Shown piece by piece: positions 3,246 to 30,006 of a stretch of DNA of 44,018 nucleotides. The translations under genes and the position numbers were made by a program. The stretch comes from Escherichia phage vB_EcoP_B. A model generated the notes under the pieces. The model saw nothing but the letters and a program-made list of their open reading frames with translations, had not been told where the DNA came from and made no database searches. Within the stretch, counting starts at the first letter, position 1; each line of letters begins with the position of its first letter. The stretch lies in the sequence record NC_047806.1; one strand, 5' to 3'.

Positions 3246-3716
3246 TTAAATATCCTCATCAATACATTCGTGACGATGCTTCTGGAATAGCTCTTTGTAG
3301 TAGTCTGCTTTCTTCAGATCTTCTTCCGTGTTGAATTTCTTCCCTGCACGCAGACGATACTTCAAAGCATTACCCATGCAATATCCAGCAAATTGCTTCT
3401 CGGTCATACTACGAGCAATGATAGTGATTGCCTCTACCCCATCGAAGAACTCGTAGTGCTTAGGCTTAGTAACCATATTGTTGTCCAACGTGCTAGGATC
3501 TTCACCTTGCAATGAGTCAACAACCTTGAAGTAAGGTGCATACCATTCGCGCTTCTCAACACCTTCTAACATGATAGAGTTATAATTAGGTTCTGCACGG
3601 GATACTTTGAATACCCCATCTGGTTTCTTGTCTAGGCTTTCACACAGTTTATTCCAGATGGCATCTCGGTAAGCTGCACGGCGTACGACGTATTCGCCAA
3701 TATAAATCTTTGACAT
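3246..3716 (-). CDS. hypothetical protein (156 aa), possibly DUF3310-like
   Basis: ORF track 3246..3731 trimmed to ATG 3714-3716 with GGAGGA SD; KPKHY...GNALKYRLRAGKK pattern (family assignment from memory, weak). Confidence 0.5.
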   Translation of the reverse strand: MSKIYIGEYVVRRAAYRDAIWNKLCESLDKKPDGVFKVSRAEPNYNSIMLEGVEKREWYAPYFKVVDSLQGEDPSTLDNNMVTKPKHYEFFDGVEAITIIARSMTEKQFAGYCMGNALKYRLRAGKKFNTEEDLKKADYYKELFQKHRHECIDEDI

Positions 3717-3769: not shown

Positions 3770-3790
3770 GTTCTATAGTGTCAACTAAAT
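3770..3790 (-). promoter_or_regulatory. phage RNAP promoter (SP6-type)
   Basis: minus-strand ATTTAGTTGACACTATAGAAC; upstream of 3246..3716. Confidence 0.65.
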
Positions 3791-4792
3791 CTTACCAATC
3801 CAGCGATTGTCATTATTGGTCTGCATCGGGACAATGTGCGGCACACCCTCCAGAATAACCACACAACCTAATGCTGGCTTGTATTTGGACTCACGACCAT
3901 AGGCAAATGCACGAGATGACTCATCAATCAAACAGCCTCCCTGCACAGCCCAATACTGTTCATGGGTGTTACGTGCATACTCCACCGACATCTTCCCATG
4001 CAAGTGACCACACACTAAGTTCATGCGCTCATGTGCTGCATCTGCTAGGACAGCGCCAGCAGGTTGATGCTTGAACGCCACCTGCTCACCATTAGGTAGC
4101 TCAAGTACATGCGTATGCTGCCAGTCCCACTGGTCGCCACCTCCCTGCGGGAAGAAGACTTCACGGTATGTGCGCAGGTATTGCACAGGGATGCCATGAG
4201 CACTGGCCTTACGGAAATGTAAGGAGCCATGATTAGAGTGGCAGATGCGCATTACAGGGAACATCTTATGTAATTTACGCATGAAGATACGAGCCTTCTC
4301 TAACTCCATACCAGCCGAATCCAGATTAGGATCTGACGTATGGAATGAAAGTGCGTGCTTGTCCGCCTCATCACCAAGATGAACTACAGTGTCTGGACGG
4401 TAACGTGCTGCCACCGCTGCCAGAAACTCTAATGTATCTGGATGCTCATAAGGTGCATGGGTGTCAGGTATTACCAGTACACTTCGATGAGGCGAGTCAG
4501 GCAATGGTACAATAGCCAAATCCTCGTAGCGGTCAGGAGTCCTGAGCTTACGTTCTTCTTTGATAGCACGGTTCGCAATAGCCAAGGTTTCATACGCCTC
4601 GCCATTCTTCTTCCGCTTTTCAAATTGTTTGGCCCAATACTTTGCAAGCTGCCTTGTAACTGTAGTCCCGTGTGTGTTATCTGAGAGAATAGACGCCATC
4701 AGGCGATAGTTGATAGTGCCATCATCCCGCTTTGCACTTTCAACTGCTTCTTCTACCTCCTTATTAGTAAACAAGTTTCTAATCTTACCCAT
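3785..4792 (-). CDS. calcineurin-like metallophosphoesterase (about 335 aa)
   Basis: ORF track 3785..4804 (TTG start) trimmed to first ATG; motifs IPDTH, HLGDEADKH, CHSNHG, CGHLHG in canonical order. Confidence 0.7.
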   Translation of the reverse strand: MGKIRNLFTNKEVEEAVESAKRDDGTINYRLMASILSDNTHGTTVTRQLAKYWAKQFEKRKKNGEAYETLAIANRAIKEERKLRTPDRYEDLAIVPLPDSPHRSVLVIPDTHAPYEHPDTLEFLAAVAARYRPDTVVHLGDEADKHALSFHTSDPNLDSAGMELEKARIFMRKLHKMFPVMRICHSNHGSLHFRKASAHGIPVQYLRTYREVFFPQGGGDQWDWQHTHVLELPNGEQVAFKHQPAGAVLADAAHERMNLVCGHLHGKMSVEYARNTHEQYWAVQGGCLIDESSRAFAYGRESKYKPALGCVVILEGVPHIVPMQTNNDNRWIGKI

Positions 4793-4846
4793 TATTCTTT
4801 CCAAACCCTCCCGCTTACAATATCACTAATGGTAGCAGGTGAGACA

Positions 4847-5221
4847 TTATAGCTTAGCTAGTCGTAACCTCTCACCTTTCTTATTAGCAACATATGTTGC
4901 CCTGATAGCACGTACAACATCCCAAGTTAGTTTAGCACGATTATTATTTTCTCCTGCAAAGCTAGCACGTCTGCCTCGATCTATCATATCTTGTATGTTG
5001 TCCTGCTGTGTACCAGATATTAAGTGTGCAGGGTTTATACACCTTGCATTATCACAAGTGTGTCTAATCACTACATCCTTTATATCCTCTATAGAAAGGC
5101 CGTGGTGCTCTGCATAGACCACGCGATGAAGTAATTGTAACCTCTTACTAGGTTTATGCCACGACCTGTAGTAACCTAATTGATTTAAGCATTTATAATG
5201 CCCGTGGTCTATACAGTCCAT
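4847..5221 (-). CDS. HNH endonuclease (124 aa), possible homing endonuclease
   Basis: ORF track 4847..5353 trimmed to ATG 5219-5221 with AAAGGAG SD one nt after upstream stop; HNH core HHGLSIEDIKDVVIRHTCDNARCINPAHL. Confidence 0.65.
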   Translation of the reverse strand: MDCIDHGHYKCLNQLGYYRSWHKPSKRLQLLHRVVYAEHHGLSIEDIKDVVIRHTCDNARCINPAHLISGTQQDNIQDMIDRGRRASFAGENNNRAKLTWDVVRAIRATYVANKKGERLRLAKL

Positions 5222-5222
5222 A

Positions 5223-5624
5223 TCATACTCCTTTCTTTCTTGCATAAGCAAGGCGTGCCTTACGGTTCTTAGCCTCGCGCTTCTCTGCCTCCGTTTGATG
5301 TTTGTGATATAACTTATCTGTCTGAGGCGTACTATGTAACTTCCAGTATTCATACAGTCGTTCTAACCATTGAAGCTGGAAGTAACGGTTATTACCTGCC
5401 TTGCCATAACCAGAGATAACACCCTTAATCTTCCCTTCCGCACCATTGCAGCCTCGGCATACAACAGCGCGGCAGAATCCTGTCTCATGGTCATGGTCAA
5501 GTACACGGTTTACAGGTGTGACAGCTTTGAGACTGCCGCCACACAGAGGGCATTTCCAGCCTTGCTTATCCAGCAATTCCTTCTTATAAGCTGCCACCTC
5601 CGATGCTTTTAATTTGCTAACCAT
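5223..5624 (-). CDS. endonuclease VII-like Holliday-junction resolvase (133 aa)
   Basis: ORF track; CPLCGG ... DHDHETGFCRAVVCRGCNGAEG resembles T4 endo VII zinc/HNH region. Confidence 0.65.
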   Translation of the reverse strand: MVSKLKASEVAAYKKELLDKQGWKCPLCGGSLKAVTPVNRVLDHDHETGFCRAVVCRGCNGAEGKIKGVISGYGKAGNNRYFQLQWLERLYEYWKLHSTPQTDKLYHKHQTEAEKREAKNRKARLAYARKKGV

Positions 5625-6637
5625 TCCGCATCATCTCCCCACAAGATTGGGTTCTTATCGGCTCGCCATATATCACCTTTGAATCTAGCCATGTGAGCTA
5701 GGCGACCACATTCAAGCATCAGGTCAAAGGCTTTGCCGATACGATAACCACCTCGGTAATTCTTAATCTTAACTTGTCCATGCCCGAACTTAGCCTTGTA
5801 AGCACCCAGCACTGCCATGTACAACTCTTTCTCTGTCTTACAATCTTTGAGAAGATCATAGGCATATTTAGCACCACGACCTGGTATGCCAGCATAGTTA
5901 TCAATATCATCACCGATAATCATCTGTGCATAGTGGAACATGAGGCCAGCACCTTTTAGATCTTTGACTTGCCCATTAGCCTTACGGCGTAGCTCAAGCC
6001 AGCCCATAGGCTCTACCCACTTCTTCTCTTGACCCGGCTGTAGATGCCAACCGGGAACAATCATCAAATCCTTATCCAAGGAAACGATGCAAGTATCAGA
6101 GAATGATTTATGCTCTGGACTACCGATAGGGAACTCGTTACCTGTATCTTGCTGGAAGCGGCGGTGGCTGTCCCATTGTGCGATACTCATGAGGTCGTCT
6201 GCTTCCTCTCCATCTGCCAAGATTGCACCGTGAACCTCTAAGAGATGCTCTCGCAATTCATAGAAGAATGGAGGCTTCTCGGTCTTACGTTGACCTTTAT
6301 AAGGCTTGGTGAATGCTAGGCGGACACGGAAGTTAGCTTCTGATTTCGTCATGAATAACTTAGCTGCATCACATTCTGCTGCATACACCCAAGAGTTAAG
6401 CAAGGAGTTCACACGGTCACACGCTTGCTTACACTCAGGCGTATCTTTGATTGATGGGACTTGTCCTGACTTAACACGAGTTGTGGCTCGTACATAAGTC
6501 ATGTCGCTGATTGTATACGCGACGATGTAAGGCAACATATCGGCATCTATTAAAGCGATTCGATTACCTTCAGTCGGCCACAGGATGAGATTATTGTCTT
6601 CCGATACTGTAGCTCCGAAGTCGAAGTTTGGTCGCAT
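5609..6637 (-). CDS. 5'-3' exonuclease (gp6-like), about 342 aa
   Basis: ORF track 5609..6646 (GTG start) trimmed to ATG with AAGGAG SD; LIDADMLPY and DKDL/GIPG blocks like T7 gene 6 exonuclease. Confidence 0.75.
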   Translation of the reverse strand: MRPNFDFGATVSEDNNLILWPTEGNRIALIDADMLPYIVAYTISDMTYVRATTRVKSGQVPSIKDTPECKQACDRVNSLLNSWVYAAECDAAKLFMTKSEANFRVRLAFTKPYKGQRKTEKPPFFYELREHLLEVHGAILADGEEADDLMSIAQWDSHRRFQQDTGNEFPIGSPEHKSFSDTCIVSLDKDLMIVPGWHLQPGQEKKWVEPMGWLELRRKANGQVKDLKGAGLMFHYAQMIIGDDIDNYAGIPGRGAKYAYDLLKDCKTEKELYMAVLGAYKAKFGHGQVKIKNYRGGYRIGKAFDLMLECGRLAHMARFKGDIWRADKNPILWGDDAEWLAN

Positions 6638-6822
6638 GTAGGCCACTCCTTCAAGAAGGAGGACACCGCATCATGGAGGTTCTGTCTTAACCAATAGTCA
6701 TCCCATTGTCTCACCTCCACTAGCTTCTCACCAGTTTTGTAATCATAGGCAACCCCAATATACTGTCTGGTGATTGCATTGTAGCTAATGTCCAGTTCAA
6801 TTCGAGATTCAATAGTCGGCAT
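6550..6822 (-). CDS. hypothetical protein (90 aa)
   Basis: ORF track; ATG 6820-6822 with GGAG SD; 3' end overlaps exonuclease start by about 90 nt. Confidence 0.35.
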   Translation of the reverse strand: MPTIESRIELDISYNAITRQYIGVAYDYKTGEKLVEVRQWDDYWLRQNLHDAVSSFLKEWPTCDQTSTSELQYRKTIISSCGRLKVIESL

Positions 6823-6939
6823 AATTCATTCTCCAATAACTATTACGCAAAAGACCCTGCCTACACTAAGGCAGACAGGGCATTAGATGAGGTGAGCGTG
6901 ATAGTCAACTAGGACTAACAGAGGCTACACCTGCTATTA

Positions 6940-13673: not shown

Positions 13674-15662
13674 TCAGAACTCACTTTCTTCATCGAAGTT
13701 AGTCTCTTCTATAGTGTCTGGTAAATCAGGTACTTCTTGTTGCCTTGCTTCACCTGTATCAAATGACTTAGTACGAGCTTGTGGTTCCATTAAACGTCCG
13801 GTTTGAATGTCACCCTTGAGCATGACCTTGGTTCCAGTGTAGATACCTTGGTCGCGGTCTTTGACACATGAGATGTACGTGGTAGTCCTTTCATCAAGCG
13901 TTTCAGCTCTTGTATTACGCTCAATCCCCAAGGCGTAAGATGCCCAGAATCCGATAGCGCCTGAGCCTCGGAAGTCAGAAAGGATAACTTCGCCACCTTC
14001 TTCGTGTTGGGTACGGTTTGCCGGAGGACGTGTAAGGTGAGAGACAAGGAAAATCGTAACCGCATGTCGATCTTTGATAGTACCAATTCGTTTGACGCAT
14101 TCATCAAGTGCACCAACCTTCCCACCAAAAGCACGCTCATCTAATTTAATCCCCGTTAAGTTATCAATGATGATATTAGAAATGCCCATAGCCTCAAACT
14201 CTAGGCAAGTTTGCTCTACCTTCTCCATAGAATAGTCACCCTCTAGGTCAGCTACAAACAGCTTCCCTGTATCAGCTACATAATCAATGGCGGCATTAGC
14301 CTCTTCCTCAGTATAGTCGAACACCTCACGGTATCCGTCTTCTTTCGGGTCATTGGTTGGCGGTAACTCAATGCGCTTATCAATCCACTTACCGATAAAA
14401 GCACGGGACACCTTGACCATCGGGTCTTCTGTAGAAATGATGCCTACAGATTCACCATGTTCTTCAATAAGATGTTTAACCACTTCGCGGAGGAACTCAG
14501 TCTTACCTACACCAGAGCCTGCACCTACAATGATAAGCTGGTTCTTACGAATACCTAGCGTTACCTTGTTCAGCTTAGGCCAAGGCCATGATAGCCCTTG
14601 CTCTGGACGTGCAGCCTTGAGCTTATCCCTTTGAGATGCGATAGATTTAATATGGCTACCAAAGACTTCATCAGATGACTTGGCATTAAACCAAGCATCA
14701 ACAAACTCTTTAGCCTTGCCAGCCATCAATGCCTTGTTAGCATCTTTGCAACCAGAAGGGTATTCAAGGATATAGGATTTGCCAGGAAACAGGCGAGCCG
14801 CTTGCTGATTCTGCTTCTGCCCTACCTCATCTCCATCAAAACCCCATATAATCTTCTTAAATTGGGCGATGTGTTCACGGTTCTGTACTATCTCTTCAAG
14901 GCAAGACTCACCTTTATTGACAGACCATACATGGTAAGGCTGGCCTTCCCACTTAGTACCCTTGGCAGAATCAAGGAGCATTTGCTGTGCTGCTAGTGCA
15001 TCCAGTTCGCCGCCGACAATGAGCAAGTGATCCTTTCGTCTTCCCTTGTCTAACACGTGAGACAAAGTATTCATCCCGAAAAGATCTTGCATACCAAAGA
15101 GTTTACCTAAATGACCAAACTTAAAGTCTTTAGGTAATGTGCGACACTTAGCGCCTACTAGTTCACCTTTCTCGAAGCGTGGATAGTAATGCCGTGAGAC
15201 TCTACCCTCTTCATCGTGTCCGACACGTACATCATACAATGCGCAAATGTCGCCGCGAATGTGTCGGGAAACAAGATTCTTACGCTTAAGCGTGAGGAAC
15301 CATTCAACATCAAGTTTCCACTCTGCTTCTTGGTCTGCCCTTTCTTGCTCATTCATGACCTCCCATCGGTCTTTCATACGCATGCCACCAAGTGCGATGG
15401 CGCGTAACTTAGGGTCGCTTATCTTCCCTTCCTTCTCCATCTCTTTGAATTGAGAAGGTGTATATTTGATATTGCCAGTAATAGGCAACTCGGTGATCTC
15501 GATGCCACCATCTGGCTTATGATAGTAAGGCTTGCCGTTATCGTGGAAATGACCACGGTTACAATAGCCAGCACCATCATCAAATATCATGAGATGATTG
15601 CCGGATTTATCGTGTCCATTCTTCTGGCAGGCAGGGCACGGGATGTTATTAATAATAGCCAT
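13674..15662 (-). CDS. bifunctional DNA primase/helicase (gp4-like), 662 aa
   Basis: ORF track; N-terminal zinc ribbon CPACQ...CNRGH, Walker A GAGSGVGKT, acidic C-terminus ending ...FDEESEF; AAGGTG SD. Confidence 0.85.
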   Translation of the reverse strand: MAIINNIPCPACQKNGHDKSGNHLMIFDDGAGYCNRGHFHDNGKPYYHKPDGGIEITELPITGNIKYTPSQFKEMEKEGKISDPKLRAIALGGMRMKDRWEVMNEQERADQEAEWKLDVEWFLTLKRKNLVSRHIRGDICALYDVRVGHDEEGRVSRHYYPRFEKGELVGAKCRTLPKDFKFGHLGKLFGMQDLFGMNTLSHVLDKGRRKDHLLIVGGELDALAAQQMLLDSAKGTKWEGQPYHVWSVNKGESCLEEIVQNREHIAQFKKIIWGFDGDEVGQKQNQQAARLFPGKSYILEYPSGCKDANKALMAGKAKEFVDAWFNAKSSDEVFGSHIKSIASQRDKLKAARPEQGLSWPWPKLNKVTLGIRKNQLIIVGAGSGVGKTEFLREVVKHLIEEHGESVGIISTEDPMVKVSRAFIGKWIDKRIELPPTNDPKEDGYREVFDYTEEEANAAIDYVADTGKLFVADLEGDYSMEKVEQTCLEFEAMGISNIIIDNLTGIKLDERAFGGKVGALDECVKRIGTIKDRHAVTIFLVSHLTRPPANRTQHEEGGEVILSDFRGSGAIGFWASYALGIERNTRAETLDERTTTYISCVKDRDQGIYTGTKVMLKGDIQTGRLMEPQARTKSFDTGEARQQEVPDLPDTIEETNFDEESEF
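13706..13726 (-). promoter_or_regulatory. phage RNAP promoter inside 3' end of helicase gene
   Basis: ATTTACCAGACACTATAGAAG. Confidence 0.6.
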
Positions 15663-27788: not shown

Positions 27789-27810
27789 CCTTCTATAGTG
27801 TCCGGTAATT
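27789..27810 (-). promoter_or_regulatory. phage RNAP promoter (overlaps terminase stop)
   Basis: AATTACCGGACACTATAGAAGG. Confidence 0.65.
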
Positions 27811-29707
27811 AATAAGTCCTTGAAATCCTTGCAGAAAGTGTATTTCTGCTTGCCGATTTACTCCTGTAATTCTGACCGTATACTCTTTGCTGCATAGCCA
27901 CGGAAGTGTTGGTTACTCTTCGCTCAGTGCCATAATCTCCATAGAGCATTGCCCTACGGAGGTGAGGTGTGTTCATAGCATGGATGTAATCGCGCATCTC
28001 CTGCGCTCTGAGGCGATTAATCCGTGTAACCTCGTCATAGTCTATCTGAGAAGTTAATTGCCGTATAGCGCCATACAGAGCGTCTAAGCGGTCATCGTGT
28101 CGTAGGCTGTTCTTCTCAATCGTGATGTTCGACATTTGATTGAAAAGGCTGTATGACATGCGTAGTTCAAGCGGATAGTGCTGTACCGACTCAAAATCAG
28201 ACTTGACCATCTCTGCGTTGAAGATGAGCCTGTGGGCCGCCATTAGTGGCTCTAGTGTTTCAATGATACGCAACTCTTTCTGTCCGGTGGCGTAATCTTC
28301 CTCCAGAGTCACAGGCCACTCTCGTTCAAAGTATGGCTTTATAACGGCCTCAAACGCGCCATGACCAAAGTTCTTTTCAATGAATACCTCTTTAACACCT
28401 GCCTGCTTTGCGGCCTGCACAATGCGATTCAGGGACGATTCGCGGTATCCTCCCGGAACACCAAAGCACTGATACACATAAATGAATGTGCCGTGCAGGA
28501 AGACGATAGACACACCCGTTTCATCCCCGTTCTTACCGCCACCTGCGGGGTCAATATACATAATCTTTCGGGTAACAGCACCCCACTCATAAGGTCGGGC
28601 CACAGGGCGATACATAAAGTCTGTAGGCTTATTGCCATACTTCGGTGCATCGCCAATGATGTTAATAGAGTCGTTGCTCCATGTAGGCATCACAGGGACT
28701 TCCTCTGTACCGAATGAAGTGAAGATGAGGTTGTTCAGGCGTAGTGGATAGCGGTCAGCATCCATCATGCGAGTGTTAAGCATAAACTGAAGCTGGAACT
28801 TAGCCGCACCCTGCGAGATTTCCTTCTCGATCAGCACATCATCATCATACATTTCAGGTGCACAAGGTGCACCACTATTGCCATCCAAGCCATACCCTGA
28901 GCGAAGTGCTGGGTTGTCCTTCATATCCTGCACAATCATAGGTGCAAGGAAGTCACCATAGCATTGCTCCTGCTCCACTGAGGGATAACGTGCAGTCCAG
29001 ATACGAACAGAGTAACCACGAGCAGGTAGGTTATTGTAGATAGAGTTTACGTTCTGAGGAGTACCAAGGTAGATAATATCACCAAACTGGTTAATAGATT
29101 CAAACTCCTTGGTCAGTTCCTCAAGCAAGGCACGTCCTGCCGCTGTACGAGCATTCTGCATTGACTCAACGTCATCTGCTAGGATGATATCTGCACGCGC
29201 ACCCTGCATACCTGCTTCGATTGAGTAACAAGACACAGAAGGCGACTTGTCACTGCCACGTAGGGTGTAATGAATCTCAAATGCCTTAACTGAGGCACGG
29301 TCCCCTGCGTAGATGTCCGGTAGCATAAACTCAAGAAAGTCTAGGCCACGGAAGATTTTAACTACCCAACCTGCGATTTCCTCTGCTCGCTTGGCGTTTT
29401 GGGATACTACCATGATACGCTTATGGGGTTCATGGATGATACGGAAAACAGTATAGATTGCTGATAGTGTAGTTTTAGCGATACCACGGGGCGCTTCGAT
29501 GAGGCGATATTTATGTCCATAGAATAGAAACTTTAAAATATCGGCCTGCATACGAATCAGATGAGGGTTGCCTGCAATCAAGTTATGGATAACTGTATCT
29601 GCAAAGAGAAGCAAACCTTCCGCCGTATACTGAAAAGTCTGCTGTAACTCCTGTAGCATCTCCCATCTGGCAAGAGCCTCCGCTTGTGATTCTCTTGCCT
29701 TAGCCAT
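27809..29707 (-). CDS. terminase large subunit (gp19-like), about 632 aa
   Basis: ORF track 27809..29710 (TTG) trimmed to ATG with CTAAGGAGG SD; Walker A-like PRGIAKTT; size and position. Confidence 0.8.
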   Translation of the reverse strand: MAKARESQAEALARWEMLQELQQTFQYTAEGLLLFADTVIHNLIAGNPHLIRMQADILKFLFYGHKYRLIEAPRGIAKTTLSAIYTVFRIIHEPHKRIMVVSQNAKRAEEIAGWVVKIFRGLDFLEFMLPDIYAGDRASVKAFEIHYTLRGSDKSPSVSCYSIEAGMQGARADIILADDVESMQNARTAAGRALLEELTKEFESINQFGDIIYLGTPQNVNSIYNNLPARGYSVRIWTARYPSVEQEQCYGDFLAPMIVQDMKDNPALRSGYGLDGNSGAPCAPEMYDDDVLIEKEISQGAAKFQLQFMLNTRMMDADRYPLRLNNLIFTSFGTEEVPVMPTWSNDSINIIGDAPKYGNKPTDFMYRPVARPYEWGAVTRKIMYIDPAGGGKNGDETGVSIVFLHGTFIYVYQCFGVPGGYRESSLNRIVQAAKQAGVKEVFIEKNFGHGAFEAVIKPYFEREWPVTLEEDYATGQKELRIIETLEPLMAAHRLIFNAEMVKSDFESVQHYPLELRMSYSLFNQMSNITIEKNSLRHDDRLDALYGAIRQLTSQIDYDEVTRINRLRAQEMRDYIHAMNTPHLRRAMLYGDYGTERRVTNTSVAMQQRVYGQNYRSKSASRNTLSARISRTY

Positions 29708-30006
29708 CAATCCTCCTTAGTGAATTGGATGATCTTGCCACTTGATGCCTCTCGGATAGCCTTGAGGCGCTTAGATAGCTTGGACTCCTCCTGCTGTGCA
29801 GCGGGTGTAGCGGTAATACCATTATCAAGAACCCACTTACACATAGCTCCAATGTCTTTACCAGAGACTAAATGCAGTGCTGCATCTGGGTCTTCTTCTA
29901 TAGTGTCCAGTATTGCCTGTGCTTTCTTATTAAAGATTTTGGTAATAGCACCATGTAGAATGCCAACCTCGTCTTCCGTAGCTGCATGTTTATTGTGTAC
30001 GCTCAT
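29707..30006 (-). CDS. terminase small subunit (gp18-like), about 99 aa
   Basis: ORF track 29707..30051 trimmed to ATG 30004-30006 with GGAGGAGG SD; position between holin and large terminase. Confidence 0.55.
   Translation of the reverse strand: MSVHNKHAATEDEVGILHGAITKIFNKKAQAILDTIEEDPDAALHLVSGKDIGAMCKWVLDNGITATPAAQQEESKLSKRLKAIREASSGKIIQFTKED
29895..29915 (-). promoter_or_regulatory. phage RNAP promoter-like sequence inside small terminase gene
   Basis: CAATACTGGACACTATAGAAG (5' end diverged). Confidence 0.45.

Follow-up and report, generated by a model that had tools for sequence, protein, structure and literature searches.

Why does a second nuclease gene stand directly behind that of a junction resolvase in Escherichia phage vB_EcoP_B, a K1-capsule E. 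coli phage and SP6/K1E-like podovirus of the genus Vectrevirus (Autographiviridae, Molineuxvirinae)? A preliminary description of its DNA had proposed that the first gene encodes a relative of T4 endonuclease VII (endo VII), and that the second, coding for an HNH nuclease, may be a mobile insertion. We followed up both proposals in the window, i.e., the whole stretch of DNA analyzed (44,018 nucleotides, NC_047806.1), and in related phages. The two open reading frames were found where they had been placed, on the minus strand, in the gene order exonuclease, endo VII, HNH, metallophosphoesterase, and nucleotide kinase:

5609-6646, minus strand: 5'-3' exonuclease gene, located upstream within this closely spaced run of genes
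5223-5624, minus strand: endonuclease VII gene, 133 aa (ATG 5624-5622, stop TGA 5225-5223)
4847-5221, minus strand: HNH_3 (His-Me finger) open reading frame, truncated, 124 aa (ATG 5221-5219, stop TAA 4849-4847)
3785-4792, minus strand: metallophosphoesterase gene, 335 aa (ATG at 4792)

The first 16 nt of the endo VII gene also form the 3' end of the exonuclease gene. Both nuclease genes are already named in the RefSeq record of vB_EcoP_B, and the 124-aa product is identical at every residue to YP_009788966.1/AQN31593.1, "HNH endonuclease [Escherichia phage vB_EcoP_B]"; to this extent, the finding is correct but ordinary and already known. The vB_EcoP phages of this set are the Smith and Huggins K1 phages (PMC5582158). 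A 3-kb region around the two nuclease genes was 99.8% identical to that of phages vB_EcoP_C, D, K, and R (hereafter named by their last letter, as is vB_EcoP_B) and 90 to 96% identical to that of many K1E/K1-5-like Vectrevirus genomes. Upstream of the exonuclease/endo VII/HNH/phosphoesterase string, a terminator-like hairpin with an 11-bp stem followed by a T-run was observed on the minus strand (6854-6881). Scanning for sigma-70 promoters yielded 8 candidates versus 6.6 ± 2.4 expected, which is not above chance, and we therefore postulate no independent promoter.

The product of the first gene matched Pfam PF02945 (Endonuclease_7) with 47.6 bits (cut-off, 23.6; E = 1.6e-12) and phrog_423 "endonuclease VII" at 3e-47, and was aligned by phmmer to T4 endo VII (PDB 1e7d) at E = 9.6e-9. 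Its segments CPLC, LDHDHE, and CRGCNGAEG aligned with C23/C26, D40/H41/H43, and C58/C61, N62, and E65 of T4, all T4 equivalents being kept: C25, C28, C56, and C59 as zinc ligands and D43, H44, H46, N60, and E63 as catalytic residues. The zinc ribbon and DHDH signature read from the sequence in the preliminary description were thereby borne out. With T4 endo VII (gp49; PDB 1e7d/1en7/2qnc), the protein shares the PF02945 domain, the four zinc cysteines, and the D-H-x-H, N, and E residues, and the helical region beyond the catalytic core aligns too. In contrast to the T4 enzyme with its 157 aa, it comprises only 133 aa, and the alignment is limited to the first ∼100 residues.

The endo VII gene occupied the same genomic position in every relative examined, as do K1E gp21 and K1-5 gp24, which are annotated as endonuclease VII. 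A homolog of T7 gene 3 (endonuclease I) was detected in the window neither by tblastn nor by phmmer (all E > 2), and no other resolvase is listed in the annotation of the sister phage C. Judged by sequence, endo VII is the only recognizable junction-resolving enzyme of the window. Since no T7 gene 3 homolog is found there and the position of endo VII is kept among relatives, its earlier designation as the likely functional analog of T7 endonuclease I is reasonable. Our search of the literature for papers on endo VII of SP6 or K1-5 found none; presumably, endo VII takes over the part of T7 gp3 in SP6-like phages. The protein would be a conserved junction-resolving and debranching enzyme, a zinc-stabilized His-Me finger dimer of the T4 gp49 type, and its role may be to resolve the branched intermediates of replication and recombination ahead of packaging, as endonuclease I does in T7.

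Across Vectrevirus, the 5' half of the endo VII gene (5351-5600) was observed in two allelic types. Identity to the window in this segment was 36 to 64% in K1E, PDP21P6, and PDP21P3 and 90 to 100% in K1-5, UTI89UKE2, and T145P2, while the 3' end (5251-5300) was 100% identical in all of these phages. DNA identity to K1-5 gp24 was likewise 100% across the 3' part; however, the last residues before the stop are KKGV here and KKEVKVG in K1-5, since the HNH block starts there. In the record of phage UTI89UKE2 (L007 586-1869), endo VII is unannotated and the phosphoesterase coding sequence is extended upstream through it (1143 bp). This is likely a mis-annotation, made possible because the phosphoesterase frame is open across the endo VII gene in phages without the HNH gene.

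The second protein matched Pfam HNH_3 with 33.6 bits (cut-off, 24.8) and phrog_6254 "HNH endonuclease" at 2e-24, in agreement with its earlier classification as a compact HNH nuclease. Its catalytic motif RHTCDNARCINPAHL at 5062-5021 was intact, and the H…N…H metal-finger motif was kept. Both nucleases lie within one His-Me finger superfamily. A paralogous relationship between them was considered and rejected (BLASTP E, 1.7); they fall into two different sequence families. As noted before, the HNH gene begins 1 nt after the resolvase stop (base 5222 lies between this stop and the HNH ATG) and has its own Shine-Dalgarno sequence:

5228-5233, minus strand: AAGGAG Shine-Dalgarno sequence of the HNH gene, within the last endo VII codons, 6 nt before the ATG at 5221

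Its homologs share the N-terminus M-x-C-I-D-H-G. Since their N-termini coincide at this motif and the Shine-Dalgarno sequence precedes 5221, we assigned the start to this position. On the same grounds, two longer versions were rejected: the mechanically called 168-aa open reading frame (start 5353) and the 151-aa protein of the phage G9 annotation.

A word-indexed protein search gave only 15 HNH homologs, and the structure alignment is correspondingly shallow. By tblastn, 1229 phage records were found to contain relatives of the wider family, which lie among many different genes and include T7 gene 7.7. With T7 gene 7.7 and the gene 5.3-type HNH proteins of Autographiviridae, the protein has the HNH_3 family and size in common, and identity to gene 7.7 was 37% over 99% of the protein. 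However, the gene occupies another genomic slot and is polymorphic here, whereas the T7 HNH genes (7.7 and 5.3-type) are fixed in T7.

This polymorphism was apparent from the distribution of the gene among relatives. While 101 phage records matched the 3-kb region, it was covered to at least 80% in only 10 of them; the rest aligned in two pieces, with 76 to 78% coverage. With the HNH gene alone as the query, it was present between endo VII and phosphoesterase in the same 10 records only, namely, those of C, D, K, and R (for C and K, RefSeq copies are included), G9, two Klebsiella phages, and PDP21P6, whose HNH allele was 73% identical. In contrast, K1-5, K1E, UTI89UKE2, T145P2, PDP21P3, and most other Vectrevirus records lacked the gene, with sharp breakpoints, and in K1-5 and K1E endo VII directly meets the phosphoesterase gene with an 8-bp overlap. 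Aligned with related phages, the open reading frame at 4847-5221 thus behaved as an indel and not as a syntenically conserved gene, which agrees with the mobile insertion that the preliminary description had thought possible. Since the HNH-less T145P2 was as near to the window in the flanks (95.6% identity) as the HNH-positive G9 (95.7%), presence of the gene does not simply track relatedness.

HNH proteins of 59 to 70% identity were encoded in the same slot of more distant phages (L012, L014, and PDP21P6), and other HNH genes lay in the slot between exonuclease and endo VII and upstream of the exonuclease gene (PDP21P3, L010, and L014). Different HNH genes at these latter positions were noted at 1809-2294 and 3255-3731 of L009, 1489-1926 of L010, and 612-1082 of L014; in L010, HNH genes bracket endo VII on both sides. 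Given that HNH genes occur in several slots near exonuclease and endo VII, the neighborhood constitutes an HNH insertion hotspot.

Linked to the presence of the HNH gene was a stretch of its downstream neighbor:

4565-4792, minus strand: divergent 5' tract, phosphoesterase codons 1-76 (228 bp); proposed co-conversion tract and candidate cleavage-resistant allele

By sliding-window comparison and base-level alignment, identity was 100% in K1-5, UTI89UKE2, and T145P2 for endo VII up to the HNH start. Within the tract, identity of K1-5, K1E, and T145P2 to the window was only 50 to 51% at the nucleotide level and 34 to 35 of 75 residues at the protein level, and directly beyond it identity was 97% in these three phages. 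HNH-positive E. coli phages, in contrast, were 94 to 100% identical within the tract, even PDP21P6 with its diverged HNH gene, and the HNH-positive Klebsiella phage matched at 75% of nucleotides and 64 of 75 residues. When the tract alone was used for blastn, matches of at least 90% were obtained only in HNH-positive records. The tract is therefore perfectly linked to the HNH gene, which suggests an inserted unit of ∼657 bp that consists of the HNH gene and a foreign phosphoesterase 5' allele; nearby mosaic blocks without an HNH gene, however, show similar sharpness. Intron-less homing would be expected to leave such a combination of an HNH gene and a divergent flank, the latter being co-converted and also carrying the cleavage-resistant allele. 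Two sources (PMC2790892 and PMC10448857) provide precedent for free-standing phage homing endonuclease genes with co-conversion of flanks near essential genes.

Compared with phage free-standing HNH homing endonucleases (T4 mobE and its relatives, with I-HmuI as the structural archetype), the HNH gene has several features in common: a His-Me finger with a C-terminal helix-turn-helix (HTH), an intergenic site beside essential DNA metabolism genes, sporadic occurrence in close relatives, and a linked divergent flank. It differs in that the protein is much smaller (143 aa when intact), has a single HTH and no NUMOD repeats, and belongs to the HNH_3 subfamily with its Cys-rich H-x-C-D-N…C-x-N-P-x-H-L motif. 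Moreover, the copy here is truncated.

Sharp mosaic blocks without an HNH gene were located at 3501-3700, 5351-5600, and 6651-6800, of which the first and the last were 40 to 66% identical to some relatives and ∼100% identical to others. Since such blocks lie nearby, ordinary recombination could also yield a linked divergent flank. The primase/helicase gene (13678-15662) represents another exchanged block, with 91.6% identity to phage C versus 98 to 99% for most of the genome. Farther away, the large terminase gene of phage C is split by a ∼750-bp insertion annotated as "homing endonuclease" (L015 8894-9647), whereas that of the window (27809-29710) is uninterrupted at the insertion point (28537-28592). 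Beside the empty site, eight substitutions spaced at multiples of 3 nt were counted in 50 bp (28544-28592). A second polymorphism of the homing type, with a tract of co-conversion or immunity, seems to be present here.

The extent given for the HNH gene in the preliminary description, 4847-5221, holds for the open reading frame of this phage, but its end is set by a 2-bp deletion, and the gene measures 432 bp in the nearest relatives. In phages C, D, K, R, and G9 it codes for 143 aa, and its stop codon shares a TAATG with the phosphoesterase start. In the window, we found the following:

4848-4851, minus strand: site of the 2-bp (TA) deletion, (TA)3 in C, D, K, R, and G9 and (TA)2 here; premature TAA at 4849-4847
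4792-4851, minus strand: out-of-frame HNH 3' remnant, encoding YNVSPATISDIVSGRVWKE, 100% identical to phage C (tblastn)

The deletion shortens the protein from 143 to 124 aa, with the last 19 residues gone. The 19 lost codons remain intact out of frame, and the original stop (TAA, 4794-4792) still overlaps the phosphoesterase ATG. Between 2332 and 6105, the window differs from phage C by one single-nucleotide polymorphism (SNP) and the TA deletion only, which indicates that the deletion is recent. An exact-pattern scan of viral contigs in IMG/VR revealed no second occurrence of the deletion junction, and contigs looked up by the exact 124-aa protein gave no hit either, this product having been identified through its protein cluster. 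Programmed frameshifting as a means of rescuing the C-terminus was rejected, as no supporting signal was found and the relatives all encode the HNH protein in one frame.

Within the lost part lies the segment GVSxxTIxxIxxGxxW, which is kept in all 14 of the 14 HNH homologs retrieved. An AF2 model of an 89%-identical protein (P0001; pLDDT, 82.7) showed a His-Me finger domain that is joined by a linker of low confidence to three helices (residues 100-109, 117-125, and 129-137), and a weak match to Pfam HTH_3 was obtained at residues 121-139. According to this model, the truncation removes the third helix of the C-terminal HTH. An intact reading frame including the DNA-binding module is thus absent from the window copy and present in its nearest relatives. 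Among intact HNH alleles, dN/dS was 0.05 to 0.12, pointing to purifying selection and, in turn, to a protein that has been functional, including its C-terminal domain. Most likely, the window copy represents an impaired or dead homing endonuclease that has just begun to decay.

Loss of frame was also seen elsewhere in the family. In two contigs from the same sequencing run (L010 2322-2758 and L011 785-1221), the gene is broken into open reading frames of 66 and 85 aa by an independent frameshift: its catalytic CINPAHL motif has lost 1 bp (AAA to AA). The 66-aa product, however, is recorded on 7 contigs. In addition, a 112-aa allele (P0027) was present in the same 90% cluster. These alleles fit the invasion-then-decay cycle of homing endonuclease genes. 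A comparable case is the defunct I-TevIII of phage T4, described in PMC2790892 as a homing endonuclease gene that was inactivated by truncation and is still in its site. The T4 enzyme, however, is intron encoded and long decayed, whereas the HNH gene here carries a single fresh 2-bp deletion, with all remaining codons intact.

Taken together, we consider it probable that the two genes encode unrelated nucleases, a conserved endo VII and a free-standing homing endonuclease, the latter decaying in the window. The HNH gene sits between the endo VII and metallophosphoesterase genes and in its intact form would be translationally coupled on both sides. During mixed infection, the intact 143-aa enzyme would bind DNA via its C-terminal three-helix HTH and cut the allele without the HNH gene, either directly at the junction of endo VII and phosphoesterase or close to it. 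When the break is repaired off the HNH-positive genome, the HNH gene would be copied in along with the donor's first 76 phosphoesterase codons, a diverged allele that presumably escapes cutting. In vB_EcoP_B, the very recent TA deletion ends the protein after residue 124 and takes away the third HTH helix, most likely with loss of function. The direction of the event would be gain by insertion rather than loss.

Four other explanations were weighed. It is unlikely that the truncated 124-aa protein is still an active nuclease, of weaker or relaxed specificity, and the gene hence not dead. The His-Me finger domain is complete, invariant residues included (H, C, D, C, N, P, and H), and of the C-terminal domain helices one and two would remain according to the model, but the missing third helix and GVSxxTIxxIxxGxxW segment are the part that no retrieved homolog lacks, and the low dN/dS of the lost region (∼0.1) marks it as functionally important. 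A nuclease that without its HTH had gained a new, less specific activity is a more distant possibility.

Rather improbable, in our view, is a domesticated accessory nuclease, which would, for instance, exclude competing phages or work on DNA ends together with the exonuclease and endo VII, patchiness and linked flank then stemming from modular recombination. Strong purifying selection, tight translational coupling inside the exonuclease-endo VII-phosphoesterase string, comparable HNH-free mosaic blocks nearby, and the lack of a separate promoter signal above chance are all compatible with such a role. On the other hand, the gene is dispensable in ∼90% of relatives, it has been lost by frameshift in the window and L010/L011 as well as in the 112-aa P0027, and members of its family reside in many different slots. 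Despite its truncated copy, phage B was among the best performers of its collection (PMC5582158). Excluding competitors by cutting HNH-less genomes would, moreover, be mechanistically the same as homing.

We likewise see little probability that an error in sequencing or assembly produced the 2-bp deletion and that the gene of phage B is really intact, with 143 aa. The deletion allele is restricted to a single record and assembly, its junction has no exact match in viral contigs, and it falls in a short (TA)n repeat. However, the genome was sequenced by Illumina MiSeq (2x250) at ∼200x with reads re-mapped (PMC5582158), which rarely miscalls a dinucleotide indel in (TA)3, and the other frameshifted alleles of the same gene in independent assemblies show that decay in the family is real. 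Least probable of all is an ancestral HNH gene that was deleted from most Vectrevirus genomes instead of inserted into a few: the same slot is filled in Klebsiella Molineuxvirinae phages and in a more distant 43.7-kb phage, and decay alleles exist, but HNH-less genomes have ∼50% diverged first 76 phosphoesterase codons and no deletion scar, the cassette lies on different endo VII backgrounds (K1-5-type in B, C, and G9 and K1E-type in PDP21P6), and the window tract groups with the Klebsiella-phage allele (64/75 aa) amid surrounding genes that are 97 to 100% K1-5-like, which points to import of a foreign block.

Returning to homing as the preferred explanation, a more specific version can be put forward tentatively. 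The intact alleles of C, D, R, K, and G9 may be active intronless homing endonucleases with a target site in the HNH-less junction or in the first 76 phosphoesterase codons; the 228-bp tract might then be a cleavage-immune allele dragged along, and phage B a natural near-isogenic knockout.

The fundamental significance is small, as endo VII is familiar from SP6/K1E-like phages and small HNH homing endonuclease genes from Autographiviridae. New relative to the preliminary description are the frameshift truncation of the HNH gene, the inclusion of 228 bp of the downstream gene in the mobile block, the prior public annotation of both genes, and the HNH hotspot. The added value lies in the truncated state of the HNH gene, by which the annotated "HNH endonuclease" of phage B is a truncated allele, in the extent of the mobile block, and in the natural B-versus-C pair. 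Vectrevirus, whose members serve in phage therapy against K1 E. coli, would offer a clean homing endonuclease cassette with a defined 228-bp linked flank, and phages B and C, which over a 3.7-kb span differ by one SNP and the TA deletion, a natural pair for homing and for competition between co-infecting therapeutic phages. If the more specific version is true, they would be a ready-made pair for studying homing, marker exclusion, and what carrying a homing endonuclease costs SP6-like therapeutic phages in fitness.
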